DNA of 64,000 nucleotides, from the NCBI GenBank assembly GCA_017991395.1, contig JAGOQQ010000001.1, forward strand, positions 33,864 to 97,863, in the 5' to 3' direction. Below the pieces are notes generated by a model. That model saw nothing but the letters and a program-made list of their open reading frames with translations, did not search any database and was not told where the DNA came from. Source of the DNA: Minisyncoccota bacterium (GTDB lineage Bacteria; Patescibacteriota; Minisyncoccia; Phycocordibacterales; UBA9973). Numbering within the stretch: position 1 is the first letter of the stretch; every line of letters begins with the position of its first letter. The position numbers and the translations under genes are program-made. Of the stretch, positions 14,458 through 36,070 are shown one piece after another.

Positions 14458-14458
14458 G

Positions 14459-15022: not shown

Positions 15023-15031
15023 AAAAAATAA

Positions 15032-15562
15032 CTATTCTATTATTATTGGTATTTGGATACTTTTAATTGGCTTGCCTGATTCTCCGCCTGATGGATCGTC
15101 TTGTTTGATTTCAAAATATGCATTTCCTTTTGGAAGTCCTGTGAAGTCGATGTTGCCTTCAAACGCAACACCTTCCACTGTCATCCAATCTGTCGTTGCC
15201 ACCCCATTACTTTGTTTCAACACTTTTTTATTTGAATCCAAAATATTTATCAATACATTTGCTTCAAAAAAATATCCTCCTTTGAGCTCGCCTCGATACG
15301 AGAGTATTCCTTTCACTTTGGACATTGGACGAATTGAAAAAGATACAAGATTGCCTTTGTCTCCCAAAATTCCCTCTTTGTCTGAAAGTGGTGGAAGTGT
15401 GGTGTCTATTGATTCAGTTTCGGTGGTGTTATTTTCTGTTGGAAAATAAACTTCTTTATTTTGAAACATAAATCGAAGTGCAATTACCATCAACACAATC
15501 AAAATGAGGAGTAAGACACTATTTAATTTTGAACCAAAAAACCAACATTTCTTTTCTTCCAT
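15032..15562 (-). CDS. Hypothetical N-anchored protein
   Basis: N-terminal TM (VLLLILIVLMVIALRFMF). Confidence 0.45.
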   Translation of the reverse strand: MEEKKCWFFGSKLNSVLLLILIVLMVIALRFMFQNKEVYFPTENNTTETESIDTTLPPLSDKEGILGDKGNLVSFSIRPMSKVKGILSYRGELKGGYFFEANVLINILDSNKKVLKQSNGVATTDWMTVEGVAFEGNIDFTGLPKGNAYFEIKQDDPSGGESGKPIKSIQIPIIIE

Positions 15563-15567
15563 ACAAT

Positions 15568-16119
15568 TTAGAACTTCACTTCCACATTATTCTTCGCTGC
15601 ATCCCCTTCATCAAGATCAAAGTATTCTTGTTTAGAAAATCCAAAGAACTTTGCGATGATATTTCCAGGAAATACTTCTACACGAGTATTCAAATCTCGC
15701 GCGTTTCCATTGTAAAAACGGCGTGATGCTTGAATTTTGTTTTCTGTATCAGAAAGTTCACGCTGAAGTTCGAGGAAGTTTGTGTTTGCTTTCAAATCTG
15801 GGTACGCCTCAGAGATAGCAAAGAGAGATTTCAAAGTTCCAGAAAGCATATTTTCTGCTTCACCTTTGTCGTGAGGATTGTTGCCTGCTTGCATAGCTCG
15901 TGATCGAGCTTCTGTCACTTTTTCAAATGCTGAAGATTCGTGAGTGGCATATCCTTTGACAGTGTTCACGAGATTTGGAATCAAGTCATAACGACGCTTG
16001 AGCTGAACATCAATATCTGCCCATGCCTCTTTTGTACGATTGATTGCACCAACAAAACCATTGTAAGAAACAATTGCCCACAAAATCACCGCACCAATAA
16101 TTATATAAAAGATAATCAT
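15568..16119 (-). CDS. lemA: LemA family protein
   Basis: N-terminal TM plus conserved LemA segments (RRYDLIPNLV, EAYPDLKAN, RRFYNGNARDLNTRVEVFPGNIIAKFFGF). Confidence 0.8.
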   Translation of the reverse strand: MIIFYIIIGAVILWAIVSYNGFVGAINRTKEAWADIDVQLKRRYDLIPNLVNTVKGYATHESSAFEKVTEARSRAMQAGNNPHDKGEAENMLSGTLKSLFAISEAYPDLKANTNFLELQRELSDTENKIQASRRFYNGNARDLNTRVEVFPGNIIAKFFGFSKQEYFDLDEGDAAKNNVEVKF

Positions 16120-16175
16120 ACTTTTTTAAGTTAATTAATACACTAAAATTATATCACATTTCTCAAAGTAAAGAG

Positions 16176-16204
16176 TTGACATATCTGTGAATATCTAGTA
16201 TTAT
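16176..16204 (+). promoter_or_regulatory. Sigma70-like promoter for the 16222 gene
   Basis: TTGACA - 17 nt - TATTAT, ~20 nt upstream of the ATG. Confidence 0.5.
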
Positions 16205-16221
16205 TTGACAAAACGATCAAC

Positions 16222-16515
16222 ATGAAAACAGGACACATGGTACTTGAGTATCTCAAGAGAGATATTGGGAACTTCAAAAATGAGCTTCTCGACGCAGATG
16301 CAATCACGGCACAAGTCGCCAAAGAGAGATTTGGCGCATTGTTTAAAAAGCATTATCAAATGCTCCCTGCCGGAGAATTGTGGTTAACACTTTTTGATAA
16401 AGAAGTCATACCACTGTTTTACTTTATAAAAGAAAACAGGGGTGACATCTTTGAATCTCGGGAAAGAACTGACACGATTATCTGGAATTCATATCGAGAC
16501 ACGGTAATTTCTTGA
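16222..16515 (+). CDS. Hypothetical protein (97 aa)
   Basis: ORF with a consensus promoter upstream. No recognised motif. Confidence 0.4.
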   Translation: MKTGHMVLEYLKRDIGNFKNELLDADAITAQVAKERFGALFKKHYQMLPAGELWLTLFDKEVIPLFYFIKENRGDIFESRERTDTIIWNSYRDTVIS

Positions 16516-16601
16516 TATCTAAATGCATCTCAAAACTCACACTTTTGAAACGAACACCCTGAACAGAAAAAATCTCACACACGAACCTTAAAAACCTACA
16601 G

Positions 16602-17264
16602 ATGAAACAACCAAACCGCGAATCAATACTACTTGTAGTTGAAATACTACTCGCACTAATACTGCTTGTGTATTTCAGGGATGATTACCAAACATCGATA
16701 ATTGTCTCTATCCTTACTTCTATGTTTCTCGGAATTCACATAGTCACAGAACCGGAAATATACAAACTCGTCACCAACAAGACTGCGTACTGGCTCACAA
16801 TCACACTCACAATCATGACTCTTGTGATTGTAGGTCAGCAATACTATATTTTTTTTGGCGAGAAAGAGATATTGTTTATAAAACTTTATAATCTCACTAC
16901 AACAATTGCGTTACTGTTAGCTATTCTTTCACTTGGCATACAATTTGGATTATATACTGTTGCGCATTTTGTGCACTATATCATAAAGAGAAAGTCTCGC
17001 ATCTCACGTGGTTGGTGCAACATACAAGAACCACTTCTGCGAGGACTACTCTTGATACGTGTTGGCAGAAAAATGGGAACAGTTCGTCCCAATTATGACG
17101 ATGATCTATTTGTTGCACCAAGAAAATTGCCAAACATATCTGAGTACAGAGTACTAGATGCAGGAAAACAATATCCAGCAGACAAACCCCAAAAATTCTT
17201 TTATTCAGTCTTTCATAAAATAAACGAGATGAAAAATGAACTCAAAAATTCGTTTTCATCATAG
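16602..17264 (+). CDS. Hypothetical polytopic membrane protein
   Basis: About 5 TM segments. No recognised motif. Confidence 0.45.
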   Translation: MKQPNRESILLVVEILLALILLVYFRDDYQTSIIVSILTSMFLGIHIVTEPEIYKLVTNKTAYWLTITLTIMTLVIVGQQYYIFFGEKEILFIKLYNLTTTIALLLAILSLGIQFGLYTVAHFVHYIIKRKSRISRGWCNIQEPLLRGLLLIRVGRKMGTVRPNYDDDLFVAPRKLPNISEYRVLDAGKQYPADKPQKFFYSVFHKINEMKNELKNSFSS

Positions 17265-17275
17265 TGAAAATAGCA

Positions 17276-17310
17276 AAAAGCCGTCATTATCCAATGACGG
17301 CTTTCTTTTT
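17276..17310. terminator. Bidirectional terminator between the 16602 gene and secF
   Basis: aaaaagccgtcattatccaatgacggctttctttttt. Confidence 0.6.
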
Positions 17311-18218
17311 TATTTGTTCTTATCTGATTTTTGCTCTATTGCTACGAGCAACGGCGACGCCAGGAATATACTTGAGTATGTTCCAAAAAACATTCCGACT
17401 GTGAGTATGAGGGCAAAATATCGAGTAGTTTCTGGTCCAAAAATAAGCAGTGCGAGAAGTACCAATATTACAGTAAGTGACGTATTGATAGACCGTGTAA
17501 ATGTTTGAGAAATACTTTTTCCAACTGTATTCTCAAATTTTTCTATAATTTTATTGTTGTTATTGAACGCGAGGTTTTCTCGAATTCTATCAAACACTAC
17601 AATGGTATCTGAGATTGAAAGTCCCAATACCGTAAGGAGTGCAACTACAAAGAGTGTATCCATTTCTGCACCAAAGACATGTGAGACAAGTGCAAACACT
17701 CCAGCTGAAATCACCACGTCATGCACAAGCGCAACCATTGCAATCACACCATACTTCCAAGACGAAACTGGCTCAGAAACTTTTCGAAATGCGTATGCAA
17801 TAAATGACACAATCACGAGTATCACCAGTACGATTGAGACAATTGATTTTCGTGCAAGTTCTTTTCCTACTGATGGTCCAATTGTTGTAAAATTCTTCTC
17901 TTCGACTTTTACAGTACCATTGAGTGAAAGTATGTTCATCAATTCTTTTCGCTCTGATTCGGTGAGAGAATGAGTCTTGACGATGAATCCATTTTCTCCT
18001 GCTGGCTGTACGAGCGCGGACTTGATTGAACTTTTTTCGATACCCTCTGTGATTTTTGACTGCTCAGGTCGAGCATCAGGATACACCACCTCTGCAAGTG
18101 CCCCGCCCTTGAATTCGATGCCGGGCTTAAGTCCAAATACAACAAGCATTGTTATTGATGCAAGTACAAACACTGCTGAAATTCCTAAAAATATTTTTCT
18201 GTTTCGAATGATAAACAT
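17310..18218 (-). CDS. secF: Protein translocase subunit SecF
   Basis: SecF topology and conserved segments (N-terminal TM, periplasmic loop, C-terminal 5-TM bundle). Lies immediately downstream of secD. Confidence 0.85.
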   Translation of the reverse strand: MFIIRNRKIFLGISAVFVLASITMLVVFGLKPGIEFKGGALAEVVYPDARPEQSKITEGIEKSSIKSALVQPAGENGFIVKTHSLTESERKELMNILSLNGTVKVEEKNFTTIGPSVGKELARKSIVSIVLVILVIVSFIAYAFRKVSEPVSSWKYGVIAMVALVHDVVISAGVFALVSHVFGAEMDTLFVVALLTVLGLSISDTIVVFDRIRENLAFNNNNKIIEKFENTVGKSISQTFTRSINTSLTVILVLLALLIFGPETTRYFALILTVGMFFGTYSSIFLASPLLVAIEQKSDKNK

Positions 18219-18275
18219 ATATGGTAGTTAGTAGATAGTAGTAAGTGCGTAAATAGTGTGCCTAGAAAATCAAAT

Positions 18276-19655
18276 TTATTTTGACAATCCAGAACTAAAG
18301 AGAAACTTTACGACCTTTGACGTATCAGACACATCGAGTGCAAACAAAAATATTCGCGTAACCATAATTGCTGAGAACAAAGATACGAGTACGCCCATGC
18401 CAAGCATCAGTGCAAAACCTTGAATCAATGTTGTTCCAAATGAAAACAAAATGGTCGCAGTAAGAAGACTTGAAATATTTGAATCTCGAATCGATGCCCA
18501 TGCTTTGTCGAAACCTTTTTGTATAGCGTCTCGTACAAGACTGCCCTTTTTCATTTCCTCTTTTATTCGTTCAAAGATAAGAATATTTGCATCAACTGCA
18601 ATACCAATAGAAATGATAAATCCTGCAATACCTGATGCGGTAAGAGTCACCGGGATAAGCTTAATGAGCGTAAGCATGATTGCAACATACATTCCCAATG
18701 CGAGAATTCCAACAAAACCTGGCAATCTGTACCAAAGGAGTAGGAACACCGCAATCACACCAAAACCAATCATTGAGGCAGTCACACCTGCATCCACTGC
18801 ACGACCACCAAGCGATGGACCAATTGTCTGTGTAGATACGAGTTCGACAGGCACAGGAAGTGCACCAGAATTGAGACGTCCAACGAGTGTCTTTGCCTCT
18901 TGTGGAGTAAACTGGCCAGTGATGACTGCGTTTCCTCCAGTAATTTCCTGTTGAACGTTTGGAGTTGAGATTGGATATCCATCAAGATAAATCGCGATTG
19001 TTTTGCCAATATTTTCTTTTGTTAGACGTGCAAACAATTCACTACCCTCTTCGTTGAATTGAATTGACACAATAGGACTTGATGTTTGTGGATCAAATTC
19101 GAGTCGTGCACGTTTCAAATATCGTCCAGTCAATGGAGAATCAACATAGTACGGATCATCAATCACATCAGTAACAACTTCACCTTTTTGTGATTTTTCT
19201 ACTGCGTCATTATATTTTTTTACAAGCTCTTCCTTTTCCTTTCCTTCAGGTCGTTCAGTTTTAAATTCCAAGAGTGGTGTTTGTCCAATCATCTCAATTG
19301 CTTTTGATACATCAGTCACACCAGGAAGATCCACTATAAGTCGGTGATCATCTGTTGCAAGGGCGCCACCTTTTTGAATCTGTACATTTGGCTCTGATAC
19401 TCCAAACAGATTGACACGTCGCTCAACAATATCTCGAAGTGCATTCATTGAATTTTCTATTTCACCCTTTTCAACCAAAGACACATCTGCACGATATACC
19501 AAATGGGTTCCACCAGAGAGGTCCAATCCTAGTCGAAACTTCTTTGACATCAACCATGAATCAGCATTTGTAGTAATTTCTGAGGCATACACAAAATAAC
19601 CGGCGAGTGCGCCGAGGATCAATATCAACAATGCGGTGATTCTTTTTTTTAACAT
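18276..19655 (-). CDS. secD: Protein translocase subunit SecD
   Basis: LGLDLSGGTHLVY, and the C-terminal TM bundle with the GIAGFIISIGIAVDANILIFERIKEE motif. Confidence 0.85.
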   Translation of the reverse strand: MLKKRITALLILILGALAGYFVYASEITTNADSWLMSKKFRLGLDLSGGTHLVYRADVSLVEKGEIENSMNALRDIVERRVNLFGVSEPNVQIQKGGALATDDHRLIVDLPGVTDVSKAIEMIGQTPLLEFKTERPEGKEKEELVKKYNDAVEKSQKGEVVTDVIDDPYYVDSPLTGRYLKRARLEFDPQTSSPIVSIQFNEEGSELFARLTKENIGKTIAIYLDGYPISTPNVQQEITGGNAVITGQFTPQEAKTLVGRLNSGALPVPVELVSTQTIGPSLGGRAVDAGVTASMIGFGVIAVFLLLWYRLPGFVGILALGMYVAIMLTLIKLIPVTLTASGIAGFIISIGIAVDANILIFERIKEEMKKGSLVRDAIQKGFDKAWASIRDSNISSLLTATILFSFGTTLIQGFALMLGMGVLVSLFSAIMVTRIFLFALDVSDTSKVVKFLFSSGLSK

Positions 19656-19719
19656 ACGTTACCGAAAATTACCCAATAATATGGCTATTGTATGCTTAAT
19701 TTACTATCAGAGCAAGGTG

Positions 19720-20271
19720 CTAGTTCTTGACAACATGTGCTATTTTGAGTGCATGATGAATCACGTATGTGGTGAGAATTCCCAGTGCAAACCCTCCTAC
19801 AATATCGATAGGAAAATGCACACCAGAAGCAACTCGTGCGAAACCAATCACTAATGCACACACAAAATACACCACTCCCATTCGTGGATGATAAAACCAA
19901 AGTGCTGTTGCAAGCGCAGAGAAAAATGTGGCGTGCCCCGAAGGAAACGAGTCGTATCCTCCATAATAAAACAAAGGGTTTATGGTATCAAAATATAAAA
20001 ATGGTCGAGGCGCACTCACAATCCATTTTAAGAGCACCACGATTGCCCACGACAACACTACTGATCCAAACACAGTCACCAGTTCAAACAATTTTGTCTT
20101 TGCCATCATTATTGGATTCTCTTTGTGAAGATATGTGTCATTGTGAAATAACACAAAAAAACCTGCGAGTATCACAATGAGTGTCCCAAATCCAGTTGCA
20201 AGCCATATTATCAATGATTGTGAGAACACAGAGTTAAACTCAATCATTGGGAAAAAAAGTAGCGCGTCCAT
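19720..20271 (-). CDS. PAP2-family phosphatase (undecaprenyl-diphosphatase/PgpB-like)
   Basis: PAP2 motifs KWIVSAPRP, PSGHA and ARVASGVHFPIDIVGG. Confidence 0.75.
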   Translation of the reverse strand: MDALLFFPMIEFNSVFSQSLIIWLATGFGTLIVILAGFFVLFHNDTYLHKENPIMMAKTKLFELVTVFGSVVLSWAIVVLLKWIVSAPRPFLYFDTINPLFYYGGYDSFPSGHATFFSALATALWFYHPRMGVVYFVCALVIGFARVASGVHFPIDIVGGFALGILTTYVIHHALKIAHVVKN

Positions 20272-20306
20272 ATATACAGTGTAGATTGAATACTTAAAAT
20301 AGCAAA

Positions 20307-21449
20307 CTATATTCCGAGAAATTCATTTTTCATACTATCTCTATGTGTTGAGAGGCCATATTGTCGCATACCCATTAGTATTCCAAGTGCGGTAAACGTG
20401 GTGAGTAAGTGTGATCCGCCATAACTTAGAAACGGCAACGTAATTCCCGTCACAGGCATCACTCCAATATTCATACCCACATTAATAATAAAGTGACTCA
20501 TCAAATATATAGCGACTCCCATACCAAAAAGCATTTCAAAATTTGTCACACCAAGTTTGGCGGTGACAAGTATCCTCCAAATCACAATTCCATAACAAAT
20601 AAATAATAGTGTTACACCAACAAAACCCCACTCCTCTGCAAAGGCTGCAAAAATAAAGTCGGTTTCGTATTCGGGCAAAAACTGTAATCGTGACTGTGTA
20701 CCATACCCTACACCCTTCCCGAGAAATTGCCCCGAACCTACAGCAATAGTGGACTGGTATGCATTGTATCCAGTACCTCGAATATCTGCGTATGGATTGA
20801 GGAAGTTTGATATACGAGCCTTTTGATATGGTTGAAATACAAAGAGCCAGAGCGTCACAAACGCCAATGCTCCAAGGCCAAATACTACTGCAAGATGTTT
20901 TTTTGAAATTCCTGATACAAGTGTCATTCCAAGCCACACAAAGAAAATAATCATCGCTGATCCAAAGTCTGGTTGTAAGAACACAAGAATAAACGGAATA
21001 AACGCATAGAGTGCGGATACAAAAAGATGCTTCACATGAGCAATCTCAACATGTCTACGTGAAAAATATTTTGCCAAAATAAGTATCACAATAAGCTTTG
21101 CAATATCGGAAGGTTGAAACGCAAATCCGCCAAATGAAAACCAACTCTGTGCCCCTTTGACTGTGTTACCGAGAACAAAAAGTATGAGGAGGACTCCGGT
21201 GATTGCCAAAAAGAATGTCACAAGCACATCTGTTCTTCTCAAAAAACGAAAATCCATTGTCGATAAAATAAAAAAAATCGTGAAAGAAATTCCAATCCAC
21301 AAAAGTTGTTTTTCAAAATATGCACCATCACCCACAAATGATTTCATGGTGATCAACCCCGAACCAACAAGGGGTATGATTGCACTGACAAGCAACCAAT
21401 CCATACCACGTGTTGTAGTACTTTTAATTTTTTTTAGAAATAACGGCAT
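20307..21449 (-). CDS. SEDS-family peptidoglycan polymerase (RodA/FtsW)
   Basis: 10-TM protein with SEDS conserved blocks (FQPSDIAKL, QPDFGSAMI, a large extracytoplasmic loop). Confidence 0.8.
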   Translation of the reverse strand: MPLFLKKIKSTTTRGMDWLLVSAIIPLVGSGLITMKSFVGDGAYFEKQLLWIGISFTIFFILSTMDFRFLRRTDVLVTFFLAITGVLLILFVLGNTVKGAQSWFSFGGFAFQPSDIAKLIVILILAKYFSRRHVEIAHVKHLFVSALYAFIPFILVFLQPDFGSAMIIFFVWLGMTLVSGISKKHLAVVFGLGALAFVTLWLFVFQPYQKARISNFLNPYADIRGTGYNAYQSTIAVGSGQFLGKGVGYGTQSRLQFLPEYETDFIFAAFAEEWGFVGVTLLFICYGIVIWRILVTAKLGVTNFEMLFGMGVAIYLMSHFIINVGMNIGVMPVTGITLPFLSYGGSHLLTTFTALGILMGMRQYGLSTHRDSMKNEFLGI

Positions 21450-21452
21450 GTG

Positions 21453-22241
21453 TTAGTAGAGTTTTTCTCCGAGCGTAAATGGATCAATGATTGGAAGTAT
21501 TTCAAGCGTCTGAGCATTTTTTCCAAATGGGTACAACCATGAAAAATTGACTTTGACTTCGGTCTGCTTTGGCAATCCGTCGACAATTGTTCTTGAAACT
21601 CCGATTGCATTGTCGAGCTGATCATACACTACAGCAATCACGGGGAATTTCCCTACATCAATAAATGATTCGTTGCGTAGTGTTGCGTATGCTTTTGGAA
21701 CTGTCTCGAGTGAGCCGAGTCCTTTGTCGGATTCTACAACACGCGCTTCTTTATAAATAGCTGATGTTTTCCAAAAGATCGGCTGTTTGGTAAATTCAAA
21801 ACGTGTGATTTTTGGTATTCTATTTCCGCCAGTTGAAAGTGCTTCTTCAAAAATGACTGTGTGTCCGTTTGGTAAAATTGATGCCATGCCTTCCCTTTGA
21901 GTAATCACGACATTTCTCTCATCATAAAGTTTAAATTGATATGGCACGGATTTGACCGCTGCATCCACATTTTGATTTTCAATATACGCCGCAACATGAT
22001 ACACACCTGGTGCTACTTCAAACGCACGCGCCCATACGACAATGAGCTCACGCGTGTCTGACATACACATGAGCGAACAGGTTCCGCCACAATCAACTCC
22101 TGTCTCAGCTCCATTTTTTTTGCCGTCTGTACATGTGGCTGGAACAGAAATTCGAGGGTAAATAAGAGCAAACAGCACACCTAGAATTACGAGGAGTACG
22201 AGTGAAAGATATACAAATTGTCGTTTGCCTGCCCAAGTCAT
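21453..22241 (-). CDS. Hypothetical N-anchored protein adjacent to the SEDS gene
   Basis: N-terminal TM, Cys cluster (CTDGKKNGAETGVDCGGTCSLMC). Its stop abuts the SEDS gene. Confidence 0.5.
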   Translation of the reverse strand: MTWAGKRQFVYLSLVLLVILGVLFALIYPRISVPATCTDGKKNGAETGVDCGGTCSLMCMSDTRELIVVWARAFEVAPGVYHVAAYIENQNVDAAVKSVPYQFKLYDERNVVITQREGMASILPNGHTVIFEEALSTGGNRIPKITRFEFTKQPIFWKTSAIYKEARVVESDKGLGSLETVPKAYATLRNESFIDVGKFPVIAVVYDQLDNAIGVSRTIVDGLPKQTEVKVNFSWLYPFGKNAQTLEILPIIDPFTLGEKLY

Positions 22242-22243
22242 AA

Positions 22244-22285
22244 GAGTAGTTAGTAGTTAGTAGTTAGTAGTTAGTAGTTAGTAGA
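22244..22285. repeat. Heptanucleotide microsatellite (AGTTAGT/CTACTAA)x~6 immediately upstream of the 21453..22241 start codon
   Basis: agtagttagtagttagtagttagtagttagtagttagtag. In mRNA sense, (ctactaa)n ctactcttATG. Confidence 0.8.
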
Positions 22286-22478
22286 AAATACAAAATGCAT
22301 TTCCTAAATACTAGAAACTAACAACTATAAACTAATGTAAATTATAACATTAAAAAACCCTAGCACTAATAGTACTAGGGTAATCTTAAAGAAATATTTT
22401 AAATTCTTAAATACACTTCTGCTGAGAATGTTCGCGTTAAGTCTGCGTTAGTTCGCGAATACAAAAATCGAACACTTG

Positions 22479-22587
22479 GTGTTGGCGACAACCTACTTTC
22501 GCCCGAAGACTATCATCGGCTCAGTAAGGCTTAACTTCTCTGTTCGGAATGGAAAGAGGTGTTTCCCTTACGATAGATCACCAACAC
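22479..22587 (-). rRNA. rrf: 5S rRNA
   Basis: Reverse complement reads GTGTTGGTGATCTATCGTAAGGGAAACACC...CCGAACAGAGAAGTTAAGCC...GAAAGTAGGTTGTCGCCAACAC. It has the conserved CCGAAC/GAAGT and AGTAGG blocks and the helix I pairing. Confidence 0.85.
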
Positions 22588-22692
22588 TAAATGTTCGATT
22601 TTATATGTGCACACAATTCAAAAATTTTTTCAAACTCGACGAAGCGATTTCTCGCCCCGTCTTAGTGAGTTCCCGCGAACTAAGTTCGGGGT

Positions 22693-22715
22693 CACCAACA
22701 CTAAATGTTCGATTT
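22693..22715. repeat. 23-nt direct duplicate of the 5S 5'-end junction
   Basis: caccaacactaaatgttcgattt occurs at 22579-22601 (spanning the 5S 5' end) and again at 22693-22715. Confidence 0.6.
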
Positions 22716-22805
22716 AGTGATTGTTTAGTTCATCATTTAAGCACTCAAGTATAAAGGGGACTCTAAAATCCGTTCCCCATTCCACACATTTCTCCTACAC
22801 ATTCG

Positions 22806-22895
22806 TGATCTCGACGGGATTCAAACCCGCGACCTCAGAACCAGCTCCTGGCAATCTACTGGTGCTACGCTCTAATCAGACTGAGCTACGAGACC
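22806..22895 (-). tRNA. tRNA-like gene between 23S and 5S with canonical acceptor, D and T arms but no canonical anticodon arm; about 14 nt extra. Possibly intron-containing or a pseudo-tRNA
   Basis: RC reads GGTCTCG TA GCTC AGTCTGATTA GAGC ... GCGGG TTTGAAT CCCGT CGAGATC A. No 5/7/5 stem-loop can be found between the D and T arms. The only local pairing there is ACCAG/CTGGT around a 14-nt loop. Confidence 0.45.
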
Positions 22896-23575
22896 GTACT
22901 CAGGAAACGGGCGATATGGACGGTGTCCTACGACCTGATATGTTGACCTGCTCAACTCGATCTAGTCTATACCCTTTTGTATTCCATCGTTAAATGGGCC
23001 TACTTAAGTCTGAGGGATACCCCCAATAATCCGTACTCGAACAGCTTCATACTGTTGCGCAACCAGCATTAGTGCTGATTCACGGCTATAAGACACGTCA
23101 AGTATGTTGCGTATGCTTGGAAACCAAGTATACATTAACAACACGACAACACTTTTGGTTTTACTTCCATGTTTGGGTTCATTCCATTAGTGACGCTTCC
23201 TGAATGTTTTTAATTTTTGCAAAATGTACTATTTATACTTGAATGCTTAAATAGTTGTTGTCATAATAGTGATTTTCAAAGTTCCTAATAGGAATCGAAA
23301 CATTAGTACGCCTCGGCTGAGTACATTACTGTACGTACACCTAGCGCCTATCGACGTGATCATCTCTCACGCTTCTTAAACGATTCCTAATCTTGAAGGT
23401 GGCTTCCCTCTTAGATGCTTTCAGAGGTTATCCATTCCCGACATAGCTACCCTGCATTGCTTTTGGCAAAACAGCAGGTACACCAGAGGTCAGTTCACCC
23501 CGGTCCTCTCGTACTAGGGGCAAGTCTTCTCAAGAATCAACGCCTGCAGTAGATAGGAGACCAACCTGTCTCACG

Positions 23576-24038
23576 CACCTACTTGCCCCACATAGCTTTT
23601 TGAAAAAAGCGACGTGGGGCCATACTCATATATCGACGAAGAGATATGAGTATGTTTTTCTCGTATTACTACGAGGATTGGACTGTAACTTCATCTCTTT
23701 CAAGATGTTTGACATTCAGTCTCTACGGGTCACAGTCATTATAAAATGACATAGTTCCCTCGGTATTGCCCCATCCGCGATTTTCCGCGTTTAATCCGCG
23801 AACTTCTGCGTTTGTCGGGTTCCACCGATATAAGTCAACTTCTCATACACTATTTCTAATGTATGCCGCCGTGAAATGTACTTACTGTACATTCATGGTC
23901 TTGTCTCTGTAAACATAAGTATTTTTACAAATACTTCCCTCAACGGATTCAAACTGCCCAATGCGTAGAACCTTATTCGTAGAGCGCAGAGCGTCGATCA
24001 AGATGCAATTGCATTTTGAATCAAACGTTTTACGTTCC
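23576..24038 (-). other. ~463-nt insertion in 23S domain V at the GAACGU|CGUGAGACAG junction (E. coli ~2593-2596 region); candidate ORF-less group I intron
   Basis: Exon-like TTAGAACGT (ends in U) lies upstream. The insert ends ...TAGGTG (terminal G) directly before CGTGAGACAGG. There is no ORF >=60 aa on the rRNA strand inside it. Confidence 0.5.
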
Positions 24039-24734
24039 ACGTTCTAAGATCTACGACCTGAACGGTTTGAACCCAGCTCGCGTACCTTTTTAAATGGCGA
24101 ACAGCCATACCCTTGGTAGCTTCTCCACCACCAGGATAAGGTGAGCCGACATCGAGGTGCCGAACTCCGCCGTCGATATGAACTCTTAGGCGGAACTAGC
24201 CTGTTATCCCTAGAGTAGCTTCTATCCGTTAATCTTCGACCGCATCTAATGCGAATCGTCGGTTCACTAGGTTCTGCTTTCGCACCTGCTTGGGATGTAC
24301 CCCTCACAGTCAAGCCAGCTTGTGCCCTTACACTATCGGCACGGTTTCCATTCGCGCCTAGCTGACCTTAATAAACCCCTCCGTTACTCTTTAGGAGGGT
24401 ACCGCCCCAGTAAAACTACCTTCCAGAAACTGTCTCTCTCCGTTTTTGCCGTAGAGATTAGAATATGCCCATTAAAAGAGTGGTATTTCACTGACGAGTA
24501 TTACATCACCGAGATGATGCACATAACCTCTCCCACCTATGCTACGCATTTAATAAACATACTCAATATCAAGATGTAGTAAAGCTTCTAGGGTCTTTTC
24601 GTCTAACTGCAGGTAACCGGCATCTTCACCGGTATTGTATTTTCACCGAGCAGGTCCCCGAGACAGTTTCCCAGTCATTACACCATTCGTGCGCGTCGGA
24701 ACTTACCCGACAAGGTACTTCGCTCTTCTGTACC

Positions 24735-24942
24735 TAAAAGAAGGACTCTATCTTCATCCATTTCATAAAGAAATTAGGATGTATGGCGCTGGTCTCTCGA
24801 TAGCCATATTTGGACTTGCTATGCATTACTGCACAACAAGGTAGCTTTTTGTTTGGTATAACTTCATCACACTTTTGATCAATTGTTTATCTTTTTCTAT
24901 GACGGTCCCAGTCCTTCACTACACTTCAATGAAATGTAGTGA
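24735..24942 (-). other. ~208-nt insertion in the 23S between CCUAAGGU and AGCGAAGUACCUUGUCGGGUAAGUUCCGAC (E. coli ~1931 site)
   Basis: The universally contiguous CCTAAGGT|AGCGAAATTCC is interrupted. The insert contains a hairpin tcactacatttcattgaagtgtagtga. No ORF. Confidence 0.5.
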
Positions 24943-24977
<35 letters not shown>

Positions 24978-25914
24978 CAGGGCTTATATCAGCCAGCTCA
25001 TGTCTTGCGACAATCACCACCGATATTTGACCTTCTGGCATTGGTCAGGTGTCACCCCCTATACATCCTCTTACGAGTTCGCAGGGAGCTGTGTTTTTGA
25101 TAAACAGTTGCCAGGAATACTTTCGCTGCGGCCACGCACATCACGCAGAGCACGATGTGCAAGCTAAAAGTTAAAAAGTTTAAAGCTAAAAGAAGAGAAA
25201 TGCATTTTGTATTTCCTTTCAGCTTTTGACTTTAAGCTTTCAGCTTATTGCCATCACATTCTATGTGATGTGCGCGGCAAGCCTTATCCCAAAGTTACGG
25301 CTGCTTTTTTGCCGAGTTCCTTGGGGACCTCTCACTCGTTCGCCTTGGTCTACTCGACCTGACTACCTGTGTCGGTTTACGGTACGGGTTCTCACATATT
25401 AGAGCTTAGAAGCTTTTCTTGGAAGCGTGCTTTATATCATCCCCATGGGCGTACCCACAGATTTATGCTCTGCTTGCATGTGTCTTGCGACTGCTTCCGG
25501 ATTTTCCTGGAAGCCACACTCACAGCACAAACTCAAATCCATTAATGAGCGATATATACTACACTCCGTCCCTCCATCGCATACGTGAGAAGTTAAGGAA
25601 TATTAACCTTATGTCCATCGGGTGCGGTTTTCACCATTCCCTTAGGCCCGACTAACCCTTGGCTGATTATCATAGCCAAGGAAACCTTAGTCTTTCGGCG
25701 GGAGGGGATCTCACCCTCCTTGCGGTTACTTGTGCCAACATTCTTACTTCTCATCACTCCAGAGTGGGTCACCCCTTCTCCTTCACTGCGGATGAGAACA
25801 CTTGCCTACCACTGCACTTGTCCGAAGACAAATACAATCCTCAAATTCGGTATCACGTTTAGCCCCGATTATTTTCGGCGCGAAATCTCTTGATGAGTGA
25901 GCTGTTACGCTTTC

Positions 25915-25946
<32 letters not shown>

Positions 25947-26530
25947 TCATTGTCAGAGAAATATCACATCCTTGATTTGCACTTAACGTGAATTTAGGGA
26001 CCTTATTTAGAGATCTGGGCTGTTTCCCTTTTGACATATGGAGCTTAGCCCCCATTGTCTAACTGCTAAGTTATGACTCTTGGTATTCGGAGTTTGATAG
26101 ATTTCGCGAGATTGCTCCCTGTCGAGATCTTCCAGTGCTCTACCCCCAAGAGGAACACTTAACGCTAGCCCTAAAGCTATTTCGGCAAGAACCAGCTATT
26201 ACCAGGTTCGATTAGCTTTTCACTCCGACCCACGCGTCATCCGAAAGTATTGAACGGCTTATCGGTTCGGTCCTCCATCTGTCTTTCGACAAACTTCAAC
26301 CTGCACATGGGTAGCTCACCTGGCTTCGGGTCTTATGCATACTACCAATTACGCGCTATTAACACTTGGTTTCCCTGGGGCTCCGTTGCGTAGCAACTTA
26401 GCCGAGCAGCATGCATAAACTCGTTGGCTCATTCTTCAATAGGCACGCCATGACGGAACACGATAAATCGCGTCCGCTCTGACTCCTTGTAAGCATATGG
26501 TTTCAGGTCTATTTCACTGTCCTTCCGGAC

Positions 26531-26571
<41 letters not shown>

Positions 26572-27545
26572 ATTCAAAAATATTTAGCCTTGCCAGTTAG
26601 TTCTGGCAGATTCCTCCAAGCTATTCGTGTCTTAGAGTACTCAAGAGCAGTAACGAAAGAGATATAATTATTTAAGTTACAGGACTATCACCTTCTTTGG
26701 TCGTGCTTTCCAGCACCTTCACATATAATTATATTTTTTGACTCTTCTCGTAAAACGAAGTTACTGTCTTACAACCCCTCACAGTAATATCCGAAGATAT
26801 TTCGTAAGGTTTGGGCTTCTCCGGTTTCGCTCGCCGCTACTCACGGAATTCATATTTGTTTCTTTTCCTCCAGGTACTGAGATGTTTCACTTCCCTGGGT
26901 ATGCATCTACACGTCAAGCGCATAGATTATCTCGAATAACCGAGATAGAGTTTCCTCATTCAGAAATTTCCGGATCAAAGGTTGTTAGGCACCTCCCCGA
27001 AACTTATCGCAGCCACACCACGTCTTTCATCGCTTTTTGAATCCTAGGCATCCACCATATGCTCTTAATTTCCTATTAGGAAATTTAAAAACCACTAAGT
27101 ATAGATATTTCTGCATATATCTATACGACAACATCACCGTACTTCAAACCGCTTCGAAGTACAGTGAACTCTGTTTTCAATACACAAAAAGAAAAGACCC
27201 TTAACTGTGTGTATCGAAACAGGATGAACTTTTCAAACAACCAGCCTTTCTGTCGTGAACTAAAAAACCGCCTGTTGGCGGTAAAAGAAAACCCCAAAGG
27301 ATTAACCTTTACGCCAACGAAGTGATTTTTTATTACTTACCATATCGTGAGAAAGAGTATATATGAAAGCAAAACCAAAGTCAAGTGATTTTTGCCTTGC
27401 AGAACAAGGCTTTTTCCCCTATTCCATACAAGCCTTATATTGCTTAATTTTAAAGGGAAAATGAGATTTTTTTGGGTTAAATTTTTTGATTATTTTTAGG
27501 TATTTTTATAGCTTTTTCCATCTTTAGAATTTTATTTTTCTTATC

Positions 27546-27655
27546 AATCCCCCGCATCTGAAACACGCATAAAATTCTGGTGAATTTTTGCTATACTCGC
27601 GCCTTCGCGCTCCGTAATGTTTCAGATGCGGGGGATTCTGTATTCAGGAATACAA
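27546..27655. ncRNA. Structured intergenic element, copy B (see 2553-2663): perfect 18-bp outer stem, conserved core, trailing small hairpin
   Basis: Outer stem atcccccgcatctgaaac / gtttcagatgcgggggat. The core differs from copy A at only 2 positions. It is followed by tgtattc-ag-gaataca. Confidence 0.4.
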
Positions 27656-27730
27656 AAATAACACAAAGACATCTAAGAAAAAAACTCCCTTGATCGTAAT
27701 CATATCAAGAGAGTTTTCAACGGAATACTA

Positions 27731-28537
27731 TTAATTCATCGGAAATGTTGGCCCAAAGCCAATCGCAGTACCTGAGGCACCAGGAGCTTGAAAGTTTATT
27801 CCAGCAAAGCCAACATTGAATAATCCATCGGTAACAAATGTTGAGTCTGGTATATCAGCTTTAATAGTAAAAGTAATATTACCATTTGCCTTTACGAAAA
27901 TAGGATTTGGAAACACCCAAGCATGATACGATGTACCACCGCCAGGCAATTGATAGAATGAAGATGCAGGAATTGTAGAAATCAAAGTTGTACCTTTGTA
28001 GATCTTAAAATTTGTAACTTTCTGCACTGGATTGACGGGAGTACCTAGCCAAAGCCCGTTAATACATACATCTTGATTACCTGTTGCAAAAAACCGAACC
28101 TTCGCCATTTCAAAATCAGCAATAGGAGGATGGCTAACGCTGAAATAACCAGGAATCGGAGTAGATAGTGAGGTCATAGAAAATGTCCCTGAACTTAAAC
28201 CTGGAGAACATACACTTGCACTGGTTCGTAATAACGTAGCACTGTCGGGAATATTAATATTAGAAGTATTGTCGCTTGTTTGATTAAAATTAAATGAAGT
28301 TAAAATTTCAGCATCAGTTTTTTCTATTAGACTCTCTTTATTTAGAGAATCGTTTTCAGAAAGAAGAAAATTATTATCCTTTTCCGTTATTAAAGCTGCG
28401 CCCTCCTGTCTTCCTATTGAAGTGAGAGGTATCATGTTGCCGATGATTATTCCTAACACAAGACTAACAAGAACGAACACAGCACTAAAAGTATTATTCT
28501 TTTGTGGATGAACCGCGGAATTCATTATTGGTTCCAT
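27731..28537 (-). CDS. Hypothetical secreted/anchored protein
   Basis: N-terminal TM (FSAVFVLVSLVLGIIIGNMIPL). S/T/N-rich, with a Gly-rich C-terminus. Confidence 0.45.
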   Translation of the reverse strand: MEPIMNSAVHPQKNNTFSAVFVLVSLVLGIIIGNMIPLTSIGRQEGAALITEKDNNFLLSENDSLNKESLIEKTDAEILTSFNFNQTSDNTSNINIPDSATLLRTSASVCSPGLSSGTFSMTSLSTPIPGYFSVSHPPIADFEMAKVRFFATGNQDVCINGLWLGTPVNPVQKVTNFKIYKGTTLISTIPASSFYQLPGGGTSYHAWVFPNPIFVKANGNITFTIKADIPDSTFVTDGLFNVGFAGINFQAPGASGTAIGFGPTFPMN

Positions 28538-28668
28538 TTTTATTTTATTTAGTTAATAATATTATCTCATTCAAATTATACCACACACCATTAAAGCAAT
28601 AAAATATTTTTGAGGATACACAAAACCCCTCTTTCGAGGGGTTTTTGTAGATGTCTGTCGTGAATGAA

Positions 28669-29358
28669 TTACATTCGTGAAGACATTTGATCTTTGACAC
28701 GATCGATAGCTTTTGACGCTGCTTCTTTTCCACCGAGTCCAAATGCGAGACCTCCTGCAATCGCAAGCATCGCAATGATACCTGTGAAGAGAATTTGCAT
28801 GAACTGAGGAGCGACACCAAGCTGTGAAAGTGCAATGATGAGTGCGAAAGTCCAGATTGCATAGTGAGCAATTGTACCAAGCATATTTGCTGAACGCACA
28901 TTTGCTGCCTTTGCACCTCCTGTGATAATTCGTCGCATTGCATCAGAGATAACTGTCGCAAGCACGAGAACAAGTGCTGCAATGATAACTTGTGGCAAGT
29001 AACGAAGCACTACTTCACGAAGAAATTCATTGACTTGTGTAAGTCCAATCACTTCGAGTGAAGTCATAAGGAAGACGATAACGATAAACCATTTTACGAT
29101 TCCACCGATAAATCCTCCAACAGAAAGCTTCATATCTGCTTTTGCAAGAATATCAGAAACTCCTGCACTTTGGAAAAGTTTGTCGAGCTTGAGTGCTCCG
29201 ATAACATTTGCAAGTGCTTTTTCGACAACAGAACCAACTACCCAACCGATTATAAAGACTATGATCGCAATGATCAGATTTGGAACGAAATTAACAAATC
29301 CGTACCAGAGACCTTGTAGAGATGTGCTAAATACGTCACCCCAATTTTGAATCAACAT
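28669..29358 (-). CDS. Conserved membrane protein (TM-helix-repeat type)
   Basis: Likely start is MLIQNWGDVF.... Several TM helices with amphipathic K/A-rich connectors. Family assignment is uncertain. Confidence 0.45.
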   Translation of the reverse strand: MLIQNWGDVFSTSLQGLWYGFVNFVPNLIIAIIVFIIGWVVGSVVEKALANVIGALKLDKLFQSAGVSDILAKADMKLSVGGFIGGIVKWFIVIVFLMTSLEVIGLTQVNEFLREVVLRYLPQVIIAALVLVLATVISDAMRRIITGGAKAANVRSANMLGTIAHYAIWTFALIIALSQLGVAPQFMQILFTGIIAMLAIAGGLAFGLGGKEAASKAIDRVKDQMSSRM

Positions 29359-29476
29359 ATTACTTTGGACCACGAAGACCGTGGTGATCGTACCCAAACG
29401 GGTACAACTAACAATTTTACTAATAACATCTTTAAGCTTCGACCTCTAAAGTGCTATGCACCAATTATACCAATAA

Positions 29477-30178
29477 TTAATTATTCGCTAAAGATTGTGT
29501 GGATAACTGAGCCGACTCTATAAGCCTCTCATGGGGATAATCAAGGATATCCCTAATCAGCTTATCGTACATGCTGAGTCTATAAAGAAAGTCCTGAGTC
29601 TCAAATACTGCATACGAAAGCTCCTTCCCTACCTCTGCTTCGAGTGCTTTTATGAGATTGTCGAGTGAACCTTTTTTGATAGTATCGCCCACAAGCAGAA
29701 AATCAACACGACTGTCATCATCCCCAATAAACACACCGGAGACAAGAAAGAGTTTAATTTTACCAACTTTTTTAAATCGCTGAACAAGATCGTCTGGTCG
29801 CAAAAATTCTGCATCAACAAGTAAATTTTTGAGATGATCAGAATACACAAAACCTGGCGTGAGGCACCAACCGTTTACTTTTTTTGTGCGTGCTTTTTTA
29901 CGTGGAGTTGCAGCAATTTCCTTTGAAAAAGATTTTGCTTTGATCATTCCCGCTGACTGTAGCGCATTGAGCTCACGACGAGCTGTGGGACGTGCTGTTC
30001 GACTTCGAGTTGCAATATCAACAGTATCAAAGCACTGCTCTGGGTTGAGTAAAAAAAGTCTCATAATCTTGACTCGCGGTAATGAACCAAAAAGTTTTCC
30101 TAGTGTTTCAAGTGCCATAATAGGGTTATTATAGACCTTTCGACGGATGGGTACAAGGGAGGAATATATTTTTGACAC
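29477..30178 (-). CDS. Winged-helix (ArsR-like) transcriptional regulator with a C-terminal domain of unknown function
   Basis: LPRVKIMRLFLLNPEQCFDTVDIATRSRTARPTARRELNALQSAGMI resembles an ArsR/MarR-type HTH. The C-terminal ~130 aa are unassigned. Confidence 0.5.
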   Translation of the reverse strand: MSKIYSSLVPIRRKVYNNPIMALETLGKLFGSLPRVKIMRLFLLNPEQCFDTVDIATRSRTARPTARRELNALQSAGMIKAKSFSKEIAATPRKKARTKKVNGWCLTPGFVYSDHLKNLLVDAEFLRPDDLVQRFKKVGKIKLFLVSGVFIGDDDSRVDFLLVGDTIKKGSLDNLIKALEAEVGKELSYAVFETQDFLYRLSMYDKLIRDILDYPHERLIESAQLSTQSLANN

Positions 30179-30190
30179 TGATATTCAGTC

Positions 30191-30652
30191 GTGTTATTGT
30201 CTTTAAAACAGCAAAAAATGAAACCGTACATACACACTGAAAGTCTCGTCTCTAAAAATGAAATCGAGTTGTTCAACCAAATTAAACGTGACATTGAATC
30301 CTTGCCTGATAATTTTGATCTAGGAAATGACCAAAACAATCAACCAATTATTCTCACGTGCCACATGCTCGCTCAAGCAATCAGTAAAAAGTATTCACTT
30401 ATGCGAGTGGATGGAAATTACCAACCAGTATTTATGAACCATTCATGGTGCATAAGTCCGGACGGCAATATCATTGATGTATATCCGTGTGGAATTATCG
30501 GCGGACCACTATTGGTATATGTCCCAGATGTACGAACTCTGCATCAACTCTTTGAGACATATGTAGCATGCCCTGTGAATATTTATGGCGTACTGAGCAA
30601 ATCCTACTTTGAACATAGTGTGTCAAAAATTTTAAATCAGATGAATTCTTGA
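30191..30652 (+). CDS. Hypothetical protein
   Basis: 153-aa ORF followed by a clean terminator. Confidence 0.4.
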   Translation: MLLSLKQQKMKPYIHTESLVSKNEIELFNQIKRDIESLPDNFDLGNDQNNQPIILTCHMLAQAISKKYSLMRVDGNYQPVFMNHSWCISPDGNIIDVYPCGIIGGPLLVYVPDVRTLHQLFETYVACPVNIYGVLSKSYFEHSVSKILNQMNS

Positions 30653-30671
30653 AATAATTCAGGAAAACAAA

Positions 30672-30696
30672 AAGTCCGCATTTGCGGACTTTTATT
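30672..30696. terminator. Rho-independent terminator
   Basis: aaagtccgcatttgcggacttttattt. Confidence 0.6.
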
Positions 30697-30809
30697 TCAC
30701 ACACTCTACTCACGTTTTAAGAAAATCCCTCATTTCTGAGGGATTAAAATGTGATTCTCACTAAGTTCTTGGTAAAACCGCCTTGATTGTTTGTACTTGG
30801 AATATTTCC

Positions 30810-31265
30810 CTACGCCGGTTTCAAACGGTTTTTTCCAATAGCCTTCTTAAGTCGCCCCGACGGTTCATTTGGCCACTCTCTTAAAATTTCTGCAAACTTC
30901 ATCAATTCTGCCCAACCTACATTAGTACCAAACCATTGAAACAAGGTGTGCACTACCCGGTCGACAATCTCATGATTTTCGCGAAACTTTTTTCCCCATT
31001 CTTTCTCTATTTCTGTACGTTCAGTTGGAAATGGATCTGGGAAAGGTTCATTCATGGCTAAAATACTATATATTGTCGTCATCAAATTATCGCTTCCTTT
31101 CCGTTTTAAAAGAAAATTGAGTGCTGCCCTTTCTCTTATTCCACCATCTAGTCTATGGGATTTAATGGATTTACTTTCACGGATTCTAAGATCCGTATAT
31201 CGAGAATATTTCTTGATATGCTTTTTTTGTTCTGGAGTCATTTCTTCGGTTTTTAGAGTTTTCAT
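30810..31265 (-). CDS. Hypothetical basic protein
   Basis: 151-aa ORF. No recognised motif. Confidence 0.4.
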   Translation of the reverse strand: MKTLKTEEMTPEQKKHIKKYSRYTDLRIRESKSIKSHRLDGGIRERAALNFLLKRKGSDNLMTTIYSILAMNEPFPDPFPTERTEIEKEWGKKFRENHEIVDRVVHTLFQWFGTNVGWAELMKFAEILREWPNEPSGRLKKAIGKNRLKPA

Positions 31266-31466
31266 TACTCTACTCCTACTTTTCTGTATTGTAAAGATTT
31301 TAGAATAGAATCATGCATACAAAAAATACCCTCAAACTGAGGGTATTTTTTGTATTTTTATTTAATGTGAGGTTGTTATTTCAATTCAACCTGTCACACA
31401 TAAATTCCTGCTGGAATTTTGCGCGACCCCGCCTCGACGCCGTCGCGTCTCCGGCTCAAATTTGAG

Positions 31467-31856
31467 CTATTTAAGCTCAACTTTGCCTCCTGCTTCTTCG
31501 ATCTTCTTCTTCAAATCTTCAGCCTCTGCTTTCTTCATTCCATCCTTAAGTGTTGCTGGTGCTGCGTCTACGAGGTCCTTTGCTTCCTTAAGTCCGAGTC
31601 CGAGAACTTCTTTAACAACTTTCATAACACCAATTTTCGCTTCACCTGCTGATGAGAGAACAACTGTAAATGAATCTTTTTCTTCTGCTGCTTCACCACC
31701 TGCTGCTGGTCCTGCAACTGCAACAGCTGCTGCTGATACACCAAATTTTTCTTCGAGAACCTTTACGAGCTCGTGGAGCTCAATTACTGACATAGTGTCA
31801 ATTTTCTCAACAAGGTCTTTAAACTTTGCTGGAACTTCAAATGTTTTTTCTTCCAT
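31467..31856 (-). CDS. rplL: 50S ribosomal protein L7/L12
   Basis: MEEKTFEV...[18 protein letters not shown], Ala/Gly/Glu hinge, and C-terminal domain [19 protein letters not shown]...[10 protein letters not shown]. Confidence 0.9.
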
Positions 31857-31932
31857 ATTGTTTTTGCTTCTAGCTACTAGCATCTTGCTACTAGCTTAAT
31901 AATAAATTAAATAATGTGATTCGATGCGAAAG

Positions 31933-32433
31933 CTAGTTGCTAGTCGCTGTCTTTTTTTCAGCAATTGCTTGTGTAACCACAGCAAGGCGCTGAATTGGTG
32001 AATTGATGAGATTCACAAATTGTGCAATGAGAGTCTCACGTGAAGGAATAGTTGCGATAGTCATCATTTCACTTGCGTTCATGTACTTTCCGTCAAATAC
32101 TCCACCAACGATACTCACTGTATCCTTGTGTGTTTTGTGGAATGCATACACGCCGCGAGCTGGAGCAATCAAATCTTCTCCAAATGCAATCGCGATTTCT
32201 CCCGGCAATTCTGGTAGTTCACCTGTGTACCCTTTTTCAGACAATACTCGCTTCAAAAGAGTTTTCTTTGTGACTTTATATCCTGACTTTTCTGCACGTA
32301 GTGCGCGTCTAAGCTCAGTTGTTTCAGACACTGGGAGCTTTTTGAATTGTACGAATACGATTGATTTTGCTCCATCGACAAGTCCTGCAAATTCTTTTAC
32401 GAGACTAGTCTTTTTTTGTTTTGTAAGTGCCAT
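31933..32433 (-). CDS. rplJ: 50S ribosomal protein L10
   Basis: MALTKQKKTSLVKEF...TTELRRALRAEKSGYKVTKKTLLKRV; located upstream of rplL. Confidence 0.9.
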   Translation of the reverse strand: MALTKQKKTSLVKEFAGLVDGAKSIVFVQFKKLPVSETTELRRALRAEKSGYKVTKKTLLKRVLSEKGYTGELPELPGEIAIAFGEDLIAPARGVYAFHKTHKDTVSIVGGVFDGKYMNASEMMTIATIPSRETLIAQFVNLINSPIQRLAVVTQAIAEKKTATSN

Positions 32434-32632
32434 ATGTATAAGTGATAAGGGATTAGTGATAAGCAAATAGGGATTCTTTTATACCCTAAACCCTTTTCAC
32501 TATTCCCTAAAATTAAAAATCGACCTGTGACGGCCGACATAGAATTACGCGTTGTATACCAAAAGGATACTCGCGTGCCTCGACGGGAAATTAAGTGATT
32601 TCACACCCGTGGTCTCTGGCCTCACGGGTTTG
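32434..32632 (-). promoter_or_regulatory. Long structured rplJ 5' leader (candidate L10(L12) autoregulatory leader). Its last ~85 nt belong to the 5'-UTR hairpin family also found before rplE and rplX
   Basis: ~200-nt untranslated leader with GC-rich hairpins (cccgtgaggccagagaccacggg). The start-proximal part is ...agggaatagtgaaaaggg...aatccctatttgcttatcactaatcccttatcacttatacatATG. Confidence 0.4.
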
Positions 32633-32662
32633 ATAGTACCACATTACAAAGCGAAGAGTCAA
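32633..32662 (-). promoter_or_regulatory. Candidate promoter for rplJ-rplL
   Basis: Minus-strand TTGACT - 18 nt - TACTAT. Confidence 0.4.
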
Positions 32663-32670
32663 GATTAGTC

Positions 32671-32829: not shown

Positions 32830-32836
32830 ATATAGT

Positions 32837-36046: not shown

Positions 36047-36070
36047 TTTTTCAGTTTTTTAGGAGTTTTC

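Follow-up and report, generated by a model that had tools for sequence, protein, structure and literature searches.

The window, a stretch of 64,000 nt from a Minisyncoccota bacterium, carries on its minus strand a 23S rRNA gene of 3795 nt (23284..27078), which the Rfam model RF02541 (2925 positions) matches over its full length with 2322 bits. A 5S gene lies downstream of it. No 16S rRNA gene was detected by Rfam search in the window (1..64000), and within this scope the 23S–5S unit is preceded by at least 37 kb without a linked 16S gene. In domain V, the 23S rRNA gene is interrupted in helix 93, directly after the position equivalent to E. coli U2593. Read on the minus strand, the region runs ...GGUACGCGAGCUGGGUUCAAACCGU UCAGGUCGUAGAUCUUAGAACGU GGAACG ... 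GUAGGUG CGUGAGACAGGUUGGUC..., and the elements distinguished in it, named after the interpretation developed below, are the following:

24062..24074, minus strand: 3' end of the 5' exon, GGGUUCAAACCGU, E. coli 2581-2593 (cmscan LSU alignment, MAFFT against E. coli, 119 genomes)
23576..24061, minus strand: insert of 486 nt, very probably a group I intron, after E. coli U2593 (L2593); first base U24061, last base G23576 (omega-G)
23958..24061, minus strand: long irregular hairpin (the rod), first part of the P1-loop insertion; intron nt 1-104 (RNAfold)
24039..24047, minus strand: E. coli-like UUAGAACGU, intron nt 15-23; six of its nine nt are paired in the rod; exon end in the preliminary description
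23945..23957, minus strand: exon-clamp strand GCAGUUUGAAUCC, intron nt 105-117; pairs with exon nt -13..-4
23876..23936, minus strand: three small peripheral hairpins between the clamp strand and the guide sequence; intron nt 126-145, 147-160 and 170-186 (RNAfold)
23866..23873, minus strand: proposed internal guide sequence CACGGCGG, intron nt 189-196, directly 5' of P2
23844..23865, minus strand: P2 hairpin with a GAAA (GNRA) loop, intron nt 197-218; nine pairs, all with compensatory changes in the family
23834..23839, minus strand: 5' strand of P3, GUUGAC, covarying with 23707-23713; four of six pairs with compensatory changes
23760..23828, minus strand: P4 (UCGGUG/ACCGA) and P5 (CCC/GGG) with a 45-nt insertion in L5; P5 pair CG in 13 and UA in 11 sequences
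23727..23759, minus strand: P6 (GGG/CCC) and P6a hairpin; six of eight pairs with compensatory changes
23717..23723, minus strand: 5' strand of P7, the guanosine-binding helix, GAGACUG; pairs with 23680-23685
23707..23713, minus strand: 3' strand of P3, GUCAAAC (family covariation)
23692..23707, minus strand: P8 hairpin, CAUCUU-GAAA-GAGAUG (RNAalifold, family covariation)
23680..23685, minus strand: 3' strand of P7, CAGUCC, preceded by J8/7, AAGUUA (Rfam alignment, family covariation)
23660..23675, minus strand: P9 hairpin with a GUAA loop; five of six pairs with compensatory changes
23586..23654, minus strand: extra 3' hairpins P9.1 and P9.2 (23621-23654 and 23586-23619; inverted repeats I4 and I2; RNAfold)
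23561..23575, minus strand: start of the 3' exon, CGUGAGACAGGUUGG, E. coli 2594-2608

The boundaries of the insert follow from two alignments. The Rfam LSU covariance model treats about 490 nt as an insert after GGGUUCAAACCGU, and MAFFT alignment with the E. coli 23S rRNA places a 486-nt insert (24061..23576) after E. coli 2593. Both agree with the preliminary description in locating a large insertion in domain V directly 5' of CGUGAGACAG, here assigned to the minus strand, and the 3' boundary between G23576 and C23575 had been drawn correctly. The 5' end, in contrast, had been set 23 nt too far downstream, after UUAGAACGU (T24039), which gave an extent of 463 nt; the exon ends at T24062. This mistaken extent, and the 'duplicated junction' reported with it, arose because the alignment was made to the E. 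coli exon GGGUUUAGAACGU instead of the lineage's own exon GGGUUCAAACCGU. The 22-nt 'degenerate duplicate' CAAACCGTTCAGGTCGTAGATC spans the true exon-intron border, being made up of the last 8 exon nt and the first 14 intron nt. Once the exon end is corrected, the mature rRNA retains no additional 22-23 nt, and the suggested insertion/excision scar or second micro-insertion falls away. The U at the end of the upstream exon and the G at the end of the insert, both noted in the preliminary description, are also found at the corrected boundaries (U24062 and G23576), and the last intron base is G in all 44 related L2593 introns.

The corrected exon is consistent with the local rRNA structure and with related genomes. 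In E. coli, helix 93 is formed by GAAC:GUUC, whereas here AACC of GGGUUCAAACCGU provides the 5' strand and pairs with GGUU at 23562-23565. The exon string ACGYGAGCTGGGTTCAAACCGT was found in at least 119 species-representative genomes, mostly Patescibacteria/CPR together with some Chloroflexota and others. The exon is directly followed by CGTGAGACAG in 65 of these 119 genomes and by CGTAAG or CGCAAG in another 7, so that 72 show an intronless continuation into CGUGAGACAG or a close variant of it (CGUAAG/CGCAAG). At exactly the same junction, 46 genomes carry an insert of 247-840 nt, one contig ends, and an insert of a few tens of nt occurs in none. Given the direct joining in 72 genomes, the large insert in 46 and the short insert in none, GGGUUCAAACCGU^CGUGAGACAGGUUGG is the natural intronless sequence of the host lineage, and GGGUUCAAACCGU its normal variant of helix 93.

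The preliminary description had interpreted the insert as a group I intron in the region of domain V that is a classic target of introns and homing endonucleases. This assignment is borne out by the site itself (L2593), by an Rfam match and by a covarying core. The group I model RF00028 aligns with 23922..23659 over model positions 1-253 (E = 7e-10); the score of 50.5 bits is marginal with respect to the gathering score of 50. In addition, a single-locus run with the intron of locus L067 yielded no group I match at the Rfam gathering score; both results count against our explanation. Structurally, group I introns are defined by a conserved P3-P9 core with a P4-P6 scaffold and a P3/P7 pseudoknot (PMC3984707). 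In line with this definition, P2, P3, P4, P5, P6/6a, P7, P8 and P9, and with them the P3-P7 elements that had been singled out for checking, are all present in the insert.

Further support comes from an alignment of the window's intron with 23 related L2593 introns (24 sequences), which extends from the clamp strand to the 3' exon. It contains 63 invariant columns, none of which is altered in the window's intron. From this alignment, RNAalifold predicts P2, P3, P4, P5, P6/6a, P8 and P9. With the P7 pseudoknot added to these helices, 94.6% of all cells form standard pairs, compared with 34-43% in controls slid by 1-3 columns; the single variable pair of P7, the closing one, is G-C in 9 sequences and A-U in 15. 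Compensatory changes on both sides were found for 30 of 51 pairs, and none of 500 shuffles reached any of the observed measures. The insertion is far beyond chance, as seen from the Rfam E value and the family-wide covariation. As all family-invariant core positions are retained and the helices are maintained by compensatory changes, the data point to selection on ribozyme function. An 11-nt complementarity between P5/J5/4 and the P9.1-P9.2 junction (I8) was treated as chance.

The segment CACGGCGG is complementary to both exons. Its GCGG pairs with exon CCGU (P1), with a U(-1)•G wobble, and its CACG pairs with CGUG of the 3' exon (P10); the P10 pairs are predicted by RNAalifold. With at most one mismatch, CACGGCGG is present in 41 of 44 L2593 introns, at a distance of 5-264 nt from the 5' splice site. 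The exons at L2593 are invariant, and covariation of P1 and P10 can therefore be seen between sites only. Introns with the same core (GUAGAGACU ... UAYAGUCC) are found at E. coli 2500 (loci L049, L079, L108 and L111) and 2504 (L050 and L087). At L2500, the homologous segment AUCG-GGGUGC matches the exons GCACCU^CGAU, and at L2504 the segment GUCGAGG matches the exon CCUCGAU, in both cases with U•G at the splice site. This covariation with the exons between sites identifies the segment 5' of P2 as the internal guide sequence. The P1 helix formed in this way is only 4 bp long, which counts against our explanation. A 713-nt L2593 intron (locus L106) has the 3' exon CGUAAG and a guide that keeps CACG, resulting in a mismatch at the fourth P10 pair; judging by this intron, P10 may effectively comprise 3 bp.

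Based on this model, we propose a splicing route in which (i) GCGG of CACGGCGG would bind the exon end CCGU as P1 and place the U(-1)•G wobble at the 5' splice site; (ii) CACG of the same segment would bind the first four 3'-exon bases, CGUG, as P10; (iii) an exogenous guanosine bound in P7 (GAGACUG / CAGUCC) would attack after U24062; and (iv) the terminal G23576 would next fill the G site, and the exons would be ligated to GGGUUCAAACCGU^CGUGAGACAGGUUGG. Ligation would restore a perfectly paired helix 93, and the junction expected in RNA would read ...GCUGGGUUCAAACCGU^CGUGAGACAGGUUGGUC..., i.e. AAACCGU^CGUGAGACAG. That the intron is actually spliced, and autocatalytically so, we infer from this structural model.

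The guide sequence is separated from the 5' splice site by a 188-nt insertion, made up of a 104-nt hairpin, the clamp strand and three small hairpins. Folding of the exon together with intron nt 1-118 by RNAfold gave -54.7 kcal/mol (z = -6.15), and none of 200 shuffles was as stable. The base of the hairpin covaries in the family, intron positions +1..+4 changing with the nucleotides upstream of the clamp strand. In an alternative conformer of the rod, the clamp strand, of which GUUUGAAUCC forms intron nt 108-117, also pairs with exon positions -2 and -1. The clamp motif GUUUGAAYCC is kept in about three quarters of the L2593 introns, and those without it mostly have a short GAACC that is able to pair with exon GGUUC. 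Across the family, the hairpin between splice site and clamp ranges from about 20 to about 160 nt, and five relatives have one as long as that of the window's intron. This range indicates that the 5' architecture is typical of the family and only the hairpin sequence is particular to this genome. In two scans of metagenomes, 22-mers of the clamp and of P7/P3' found no match, and a lookup of two flanking proteins led only to JAGORK010000002.1 (GCA_018062865.1), which is identical to the window, and to short contigs ending before the rRNA; the samples underlying SRR11088447, SRR11088410 and SRR11088448 contain the organism. As no close relative of this copy was found, its long hairpin has no comparative support of its own. 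Among the compared loci, the nearest 23S rRNA genes belong to Candidatus Nomurabacteria genomes (89-92% identity); the closest intron core, that of L067 (69% over 281 nt), comes from a host other than the closest one.

Three other explanations of the insert were weighed against this one. If the intron comprised only 463 nt (24038..23576) and were spliced after UUAGAACGU (T24039), the junction would read ...GAUCUUAGAACGU^CGUGAG and the mature 23S rRNA would keep an extra 22-23 nt in the peptidyl-transferase loop/helix 93. UUAGAACGU is identical to E. coli 2585-2593, ends in CGU and could form three of the four P1 pairs with GCGG; GAACGU, as read from the sequence, would be able to pair with ACGUUU 10 nt downstream. 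UUAGAACGU has a single occurrence in the window, where 0.62 would be expected per 64 kb on both strands and roughly 0.002 inside the intron in sense orientation; this match is mildly surprising but post hoc and amounts to weak evidence. However, an insert of about 23 nt at the L2593 junction is found in none of the 119 related 23S rRNA genes, in which the shortest insert measures 247 nt and 72 of which join AAACCGU straight to CGUGAG or a close variant. Moreover, GGUU on the 3' strand of helix 93 is complementary to AACC but does not fit GAAC of UUAGAACGU, which lies within the intron; the first copy is chosen by the covariance model as well as by MAFFT; and six of the nine nt of UUAGAACGU are paired inside the rod in the minimum-free-energy fold. 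A leftover of 23 nt adjoining U2585/A2602 would also disrupt the catalytic centre of the ribosome. We consider the shorter intron extremely improbable. UUAGAACGU further holds one of three AACGU copies at 7-nt spacing. We also considered whether UUAGAACGU and the nearby AACGUUUGAUUC are remnants of an older junction or guide, or whether the 5' region arose by tandem duplication, but found no support for this: self-BLAST revealed no duplicated segment beyond 7-8-nt words, and Tandem Repeats Finder reported nothing.

With the junctions unchanged, the catalytic P1 could instead be the long exon-intron helix, in which exon -13..-1 and intron +1..+4 face intron nt 101-117 and U(-1) pairs with G105, leaving another role for CACGGCGG. 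This was our first model, and it was dropped after the pairing of CACGGCGG with both exons and the covariation at L2500 and L2504 had been recognised. The helix is the minimum-free-energy structure (RNAfold), its intron part covaries (position +1 is T:A in 16, A:T in 5, G:C in 4 and T:G in 4 cases, and +2 to +4 behave likewise), and U(-1) stands opposite G in the window's copy. In 26 of 34 relatives, however, A instead of G stands opposite U(-1), and no more than 12 of the 34 have C(-3) paired; P10 cannot form beside the helix; about a quarter of the L2593 introns have no such helix yet keep CACGGCGG; and at L2500 and L2504, the introns with this core have their guide immediately 5' of P2/P3, with U•G. 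A catalytic role of the long helix as P1 is thus unlikely. Still less probable, in our view, is an insert that is cut out by an RNase III-type process without ligation, resulting in a fragmented 23S rRNA, or a decayed intron that depends wholly on host factors. RNase III could plausibly cleave the long double-stranded rod, intervening sequences of this type are known in bacterial 23S rRNA and suspected in CPR (PMC11270868), and the intron has no maturase or endonuclease ORF. Like the insert in the proposed model, RNase III-excised intervening sequences are additional 23S gene sequence that the mature ribosome lacks; they are, however, simple hairpins at other 23S sites, are not ligated and have no ribozyme core, whereas the insert lies in helix 93 (E. 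coli 2593) and combines a complete group I core with a guide sequence. The sites of known intervening sequences coincide with 23IS2 and 23IS4 of the CPR catalogue and not with 2593. Both possibilities are difficult to reconcile with the retention of all family-invariant core positions, with core helices under compensatory change and with a guide that matches both exons, and a break in helix 93 beside A2602 would probably not be tolerated.

We conclude that the insert is very probably an ORF-less group I intron at L2593 of a CPR/Patescibacteria 23S rRNA gene, with the boundaries, core and guide sequence proposed here. Its position, boundaries, core structure, guide-sequence complementarity and lack of an ORF are computational observations. 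As had been stated in the preliminary description, the insert is free of overlapping ORFs of 60 aa or more; the longest has 52 aa. Four small ORFs (33-52 aa) gave no Pfam match at E <= 1, and neither a LAGLIDADG, GIY-YIG or HNH endonuclease gene nor an endonuclease remnant was found inside the intron. Since a homing endonuclease gene is missing, this copy presumably cannot move by itself and is passed on vertically.

L2593 is also the site of the chloroplast Cr.LSU / I-CreI intron, and we take the order of guide sequence, P2(GNRA) and P3 to be similar to that of the Azoarcus/Anabaena pre-tRNA IC3 introns. Unlike the latter, the window's intron resides in an rRNA gene and has large additions in L1, in L5 and after P9. 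Features shared with RF00028 and compact bacterial group I introns are the position of the guide 5' of a GNRA-looped P2, a short P5, a GNRA L9 and the strands GUAGAGACU and AGUCC. The cyanobacterial L2593 introns of Synechococcus C9, S. lividus C1 and Thermosynechococcus are inserted at the same site and in the same target family, ...ACGU^CGUGAGACAG, but are about 745 nt long and possess a LAGLIDADG endonuclease gene and a P7.1/P7.2 extension of about 65 nt (PMC1995217). In contrast, the window's intron has no endonuclease ORF, and between the 5' strand of P7 and P3' it has only GAAU (4 nt), a spacing shared by all 23 relatives. Without the ORF and the P7.1/P7.2 extension, it belongs to a structural subgroup other than the IA-type L2593 introns of cyanobacteria and chloroplasts.

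Within CPR bacteria, 82% of the 23S rRNA genes carry insertions (Tsurumaki et al. 2024, PMC11270868). By the Rfam model, 45% of the insertions are group I, 222 group I introns are ORF-less, and the hotspots are 1917, 1931, 1952, 2593, 2604 and 2657 (PMC11270868). According to the introduction of that paper, which cites Brown et al., CPR rRNA insertions are reported to be removed from transcripts (PMC11270868). The introns catalogued at 2593 (23IS12, PMC11270868) come from the same clade, gene and site, are recognised by Rfam as group I and are commonly ORF-less. The window's copy, which is not necessarily part of that data set, has a comparatively large distance of 188 nt from the 5' splice site to the guide, the range being 5-264 nt in the 44 introns examined here. 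CPR introns at 2593 being already catalogued, it is one more ORF-less copy among documented rRNA introns.

The same 23S rRNA gene contains further inserts. One of 218 nt (24942..24725, minus strand) is located exactly after E. coli U1931, with the exon ending in U and the insert in G. It gives a weak Rfam group I match (24.7 bits, E = 4e-4), in which 93 P4-P6 model positions are replaced by 12 nt, and similar inserts of 199-299 nt occur in five relatives (loci L023, L049, L055, L063 and L064). The 1931 inserts share an exon clamp, CGGUCCUA:UAGGACCG, a GNRA hairpin, P3, P7, P8 and P9, as well as a guide-like AGCUACCU (GCU:AGC, ACCU(U):(A)AGGU), in whose pairing U(-1) faces A and not G; only 14 nt lie between their two P3 strands. 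They may represent minimal group I-like introns without a P4-P6 scaffold. At 25199..25112 (minus strand; about 88-122 nt), a long hairpin extends the helix near E. coli 1730-1767 and has only spurious, miRNA-like Rfam matches, and a 49-nt insertion follows E. coli 304 (26762..26714, minus strand); both are probably expansion segments or intervening sequences. Downstream of the 5S gene, Rfam detects a tRNA of 90 nt (22806..22895, minus strand, 42.7 bits), whereas ARAGORN finds no tRNA in the whole window. The acceptor, D and T arms of this tRNA fold normally, but the region of its anticodon arm exceeds the usual length by about 19 nt. Either a short insertion or intron within a tRNA or the degeneration of a copy could account for this.

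In annotations of this organism, both the 486-nt intron and the 218-nt insert at 1931 should be left out of the modelled mature 23S rRNA. Otherwise, a false 23-nt insertion in the catalytic centre would enter rRNA phylogeny, probe design and ribosome modelling. The wider interest of the locus is limited to the conserved second exon-binding strand of the L2593 introns and to the short 1931 inserts that seemingly have no P4-P6 domain. With regard to the former, the clamp may help to hold or present the 5' exon, or it may compete with P1 as an alternative conformer. It is conceivable, although we put this forward only tentatively and hold it to be rather doubtful, that most CPR introns at L2593 grip the 5' exon twice, by the 4-bp P1 and by a non-contiguous clamp of 5-10 bp (exon -13..-4). 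In such a two-place arrangement, the clamp strand would lie 5' of the guide sequence and, in the larger family, can be modelled to stack on the variable hairpin, giving a rod that would compete with P1. To our knowledge, a bipartite exon grip of this kind has not been described for natural group I introns. If it exists, such a grip, or a switch between the conformers, could link splicing with the way in which the peptidyl-transferase centre folds.
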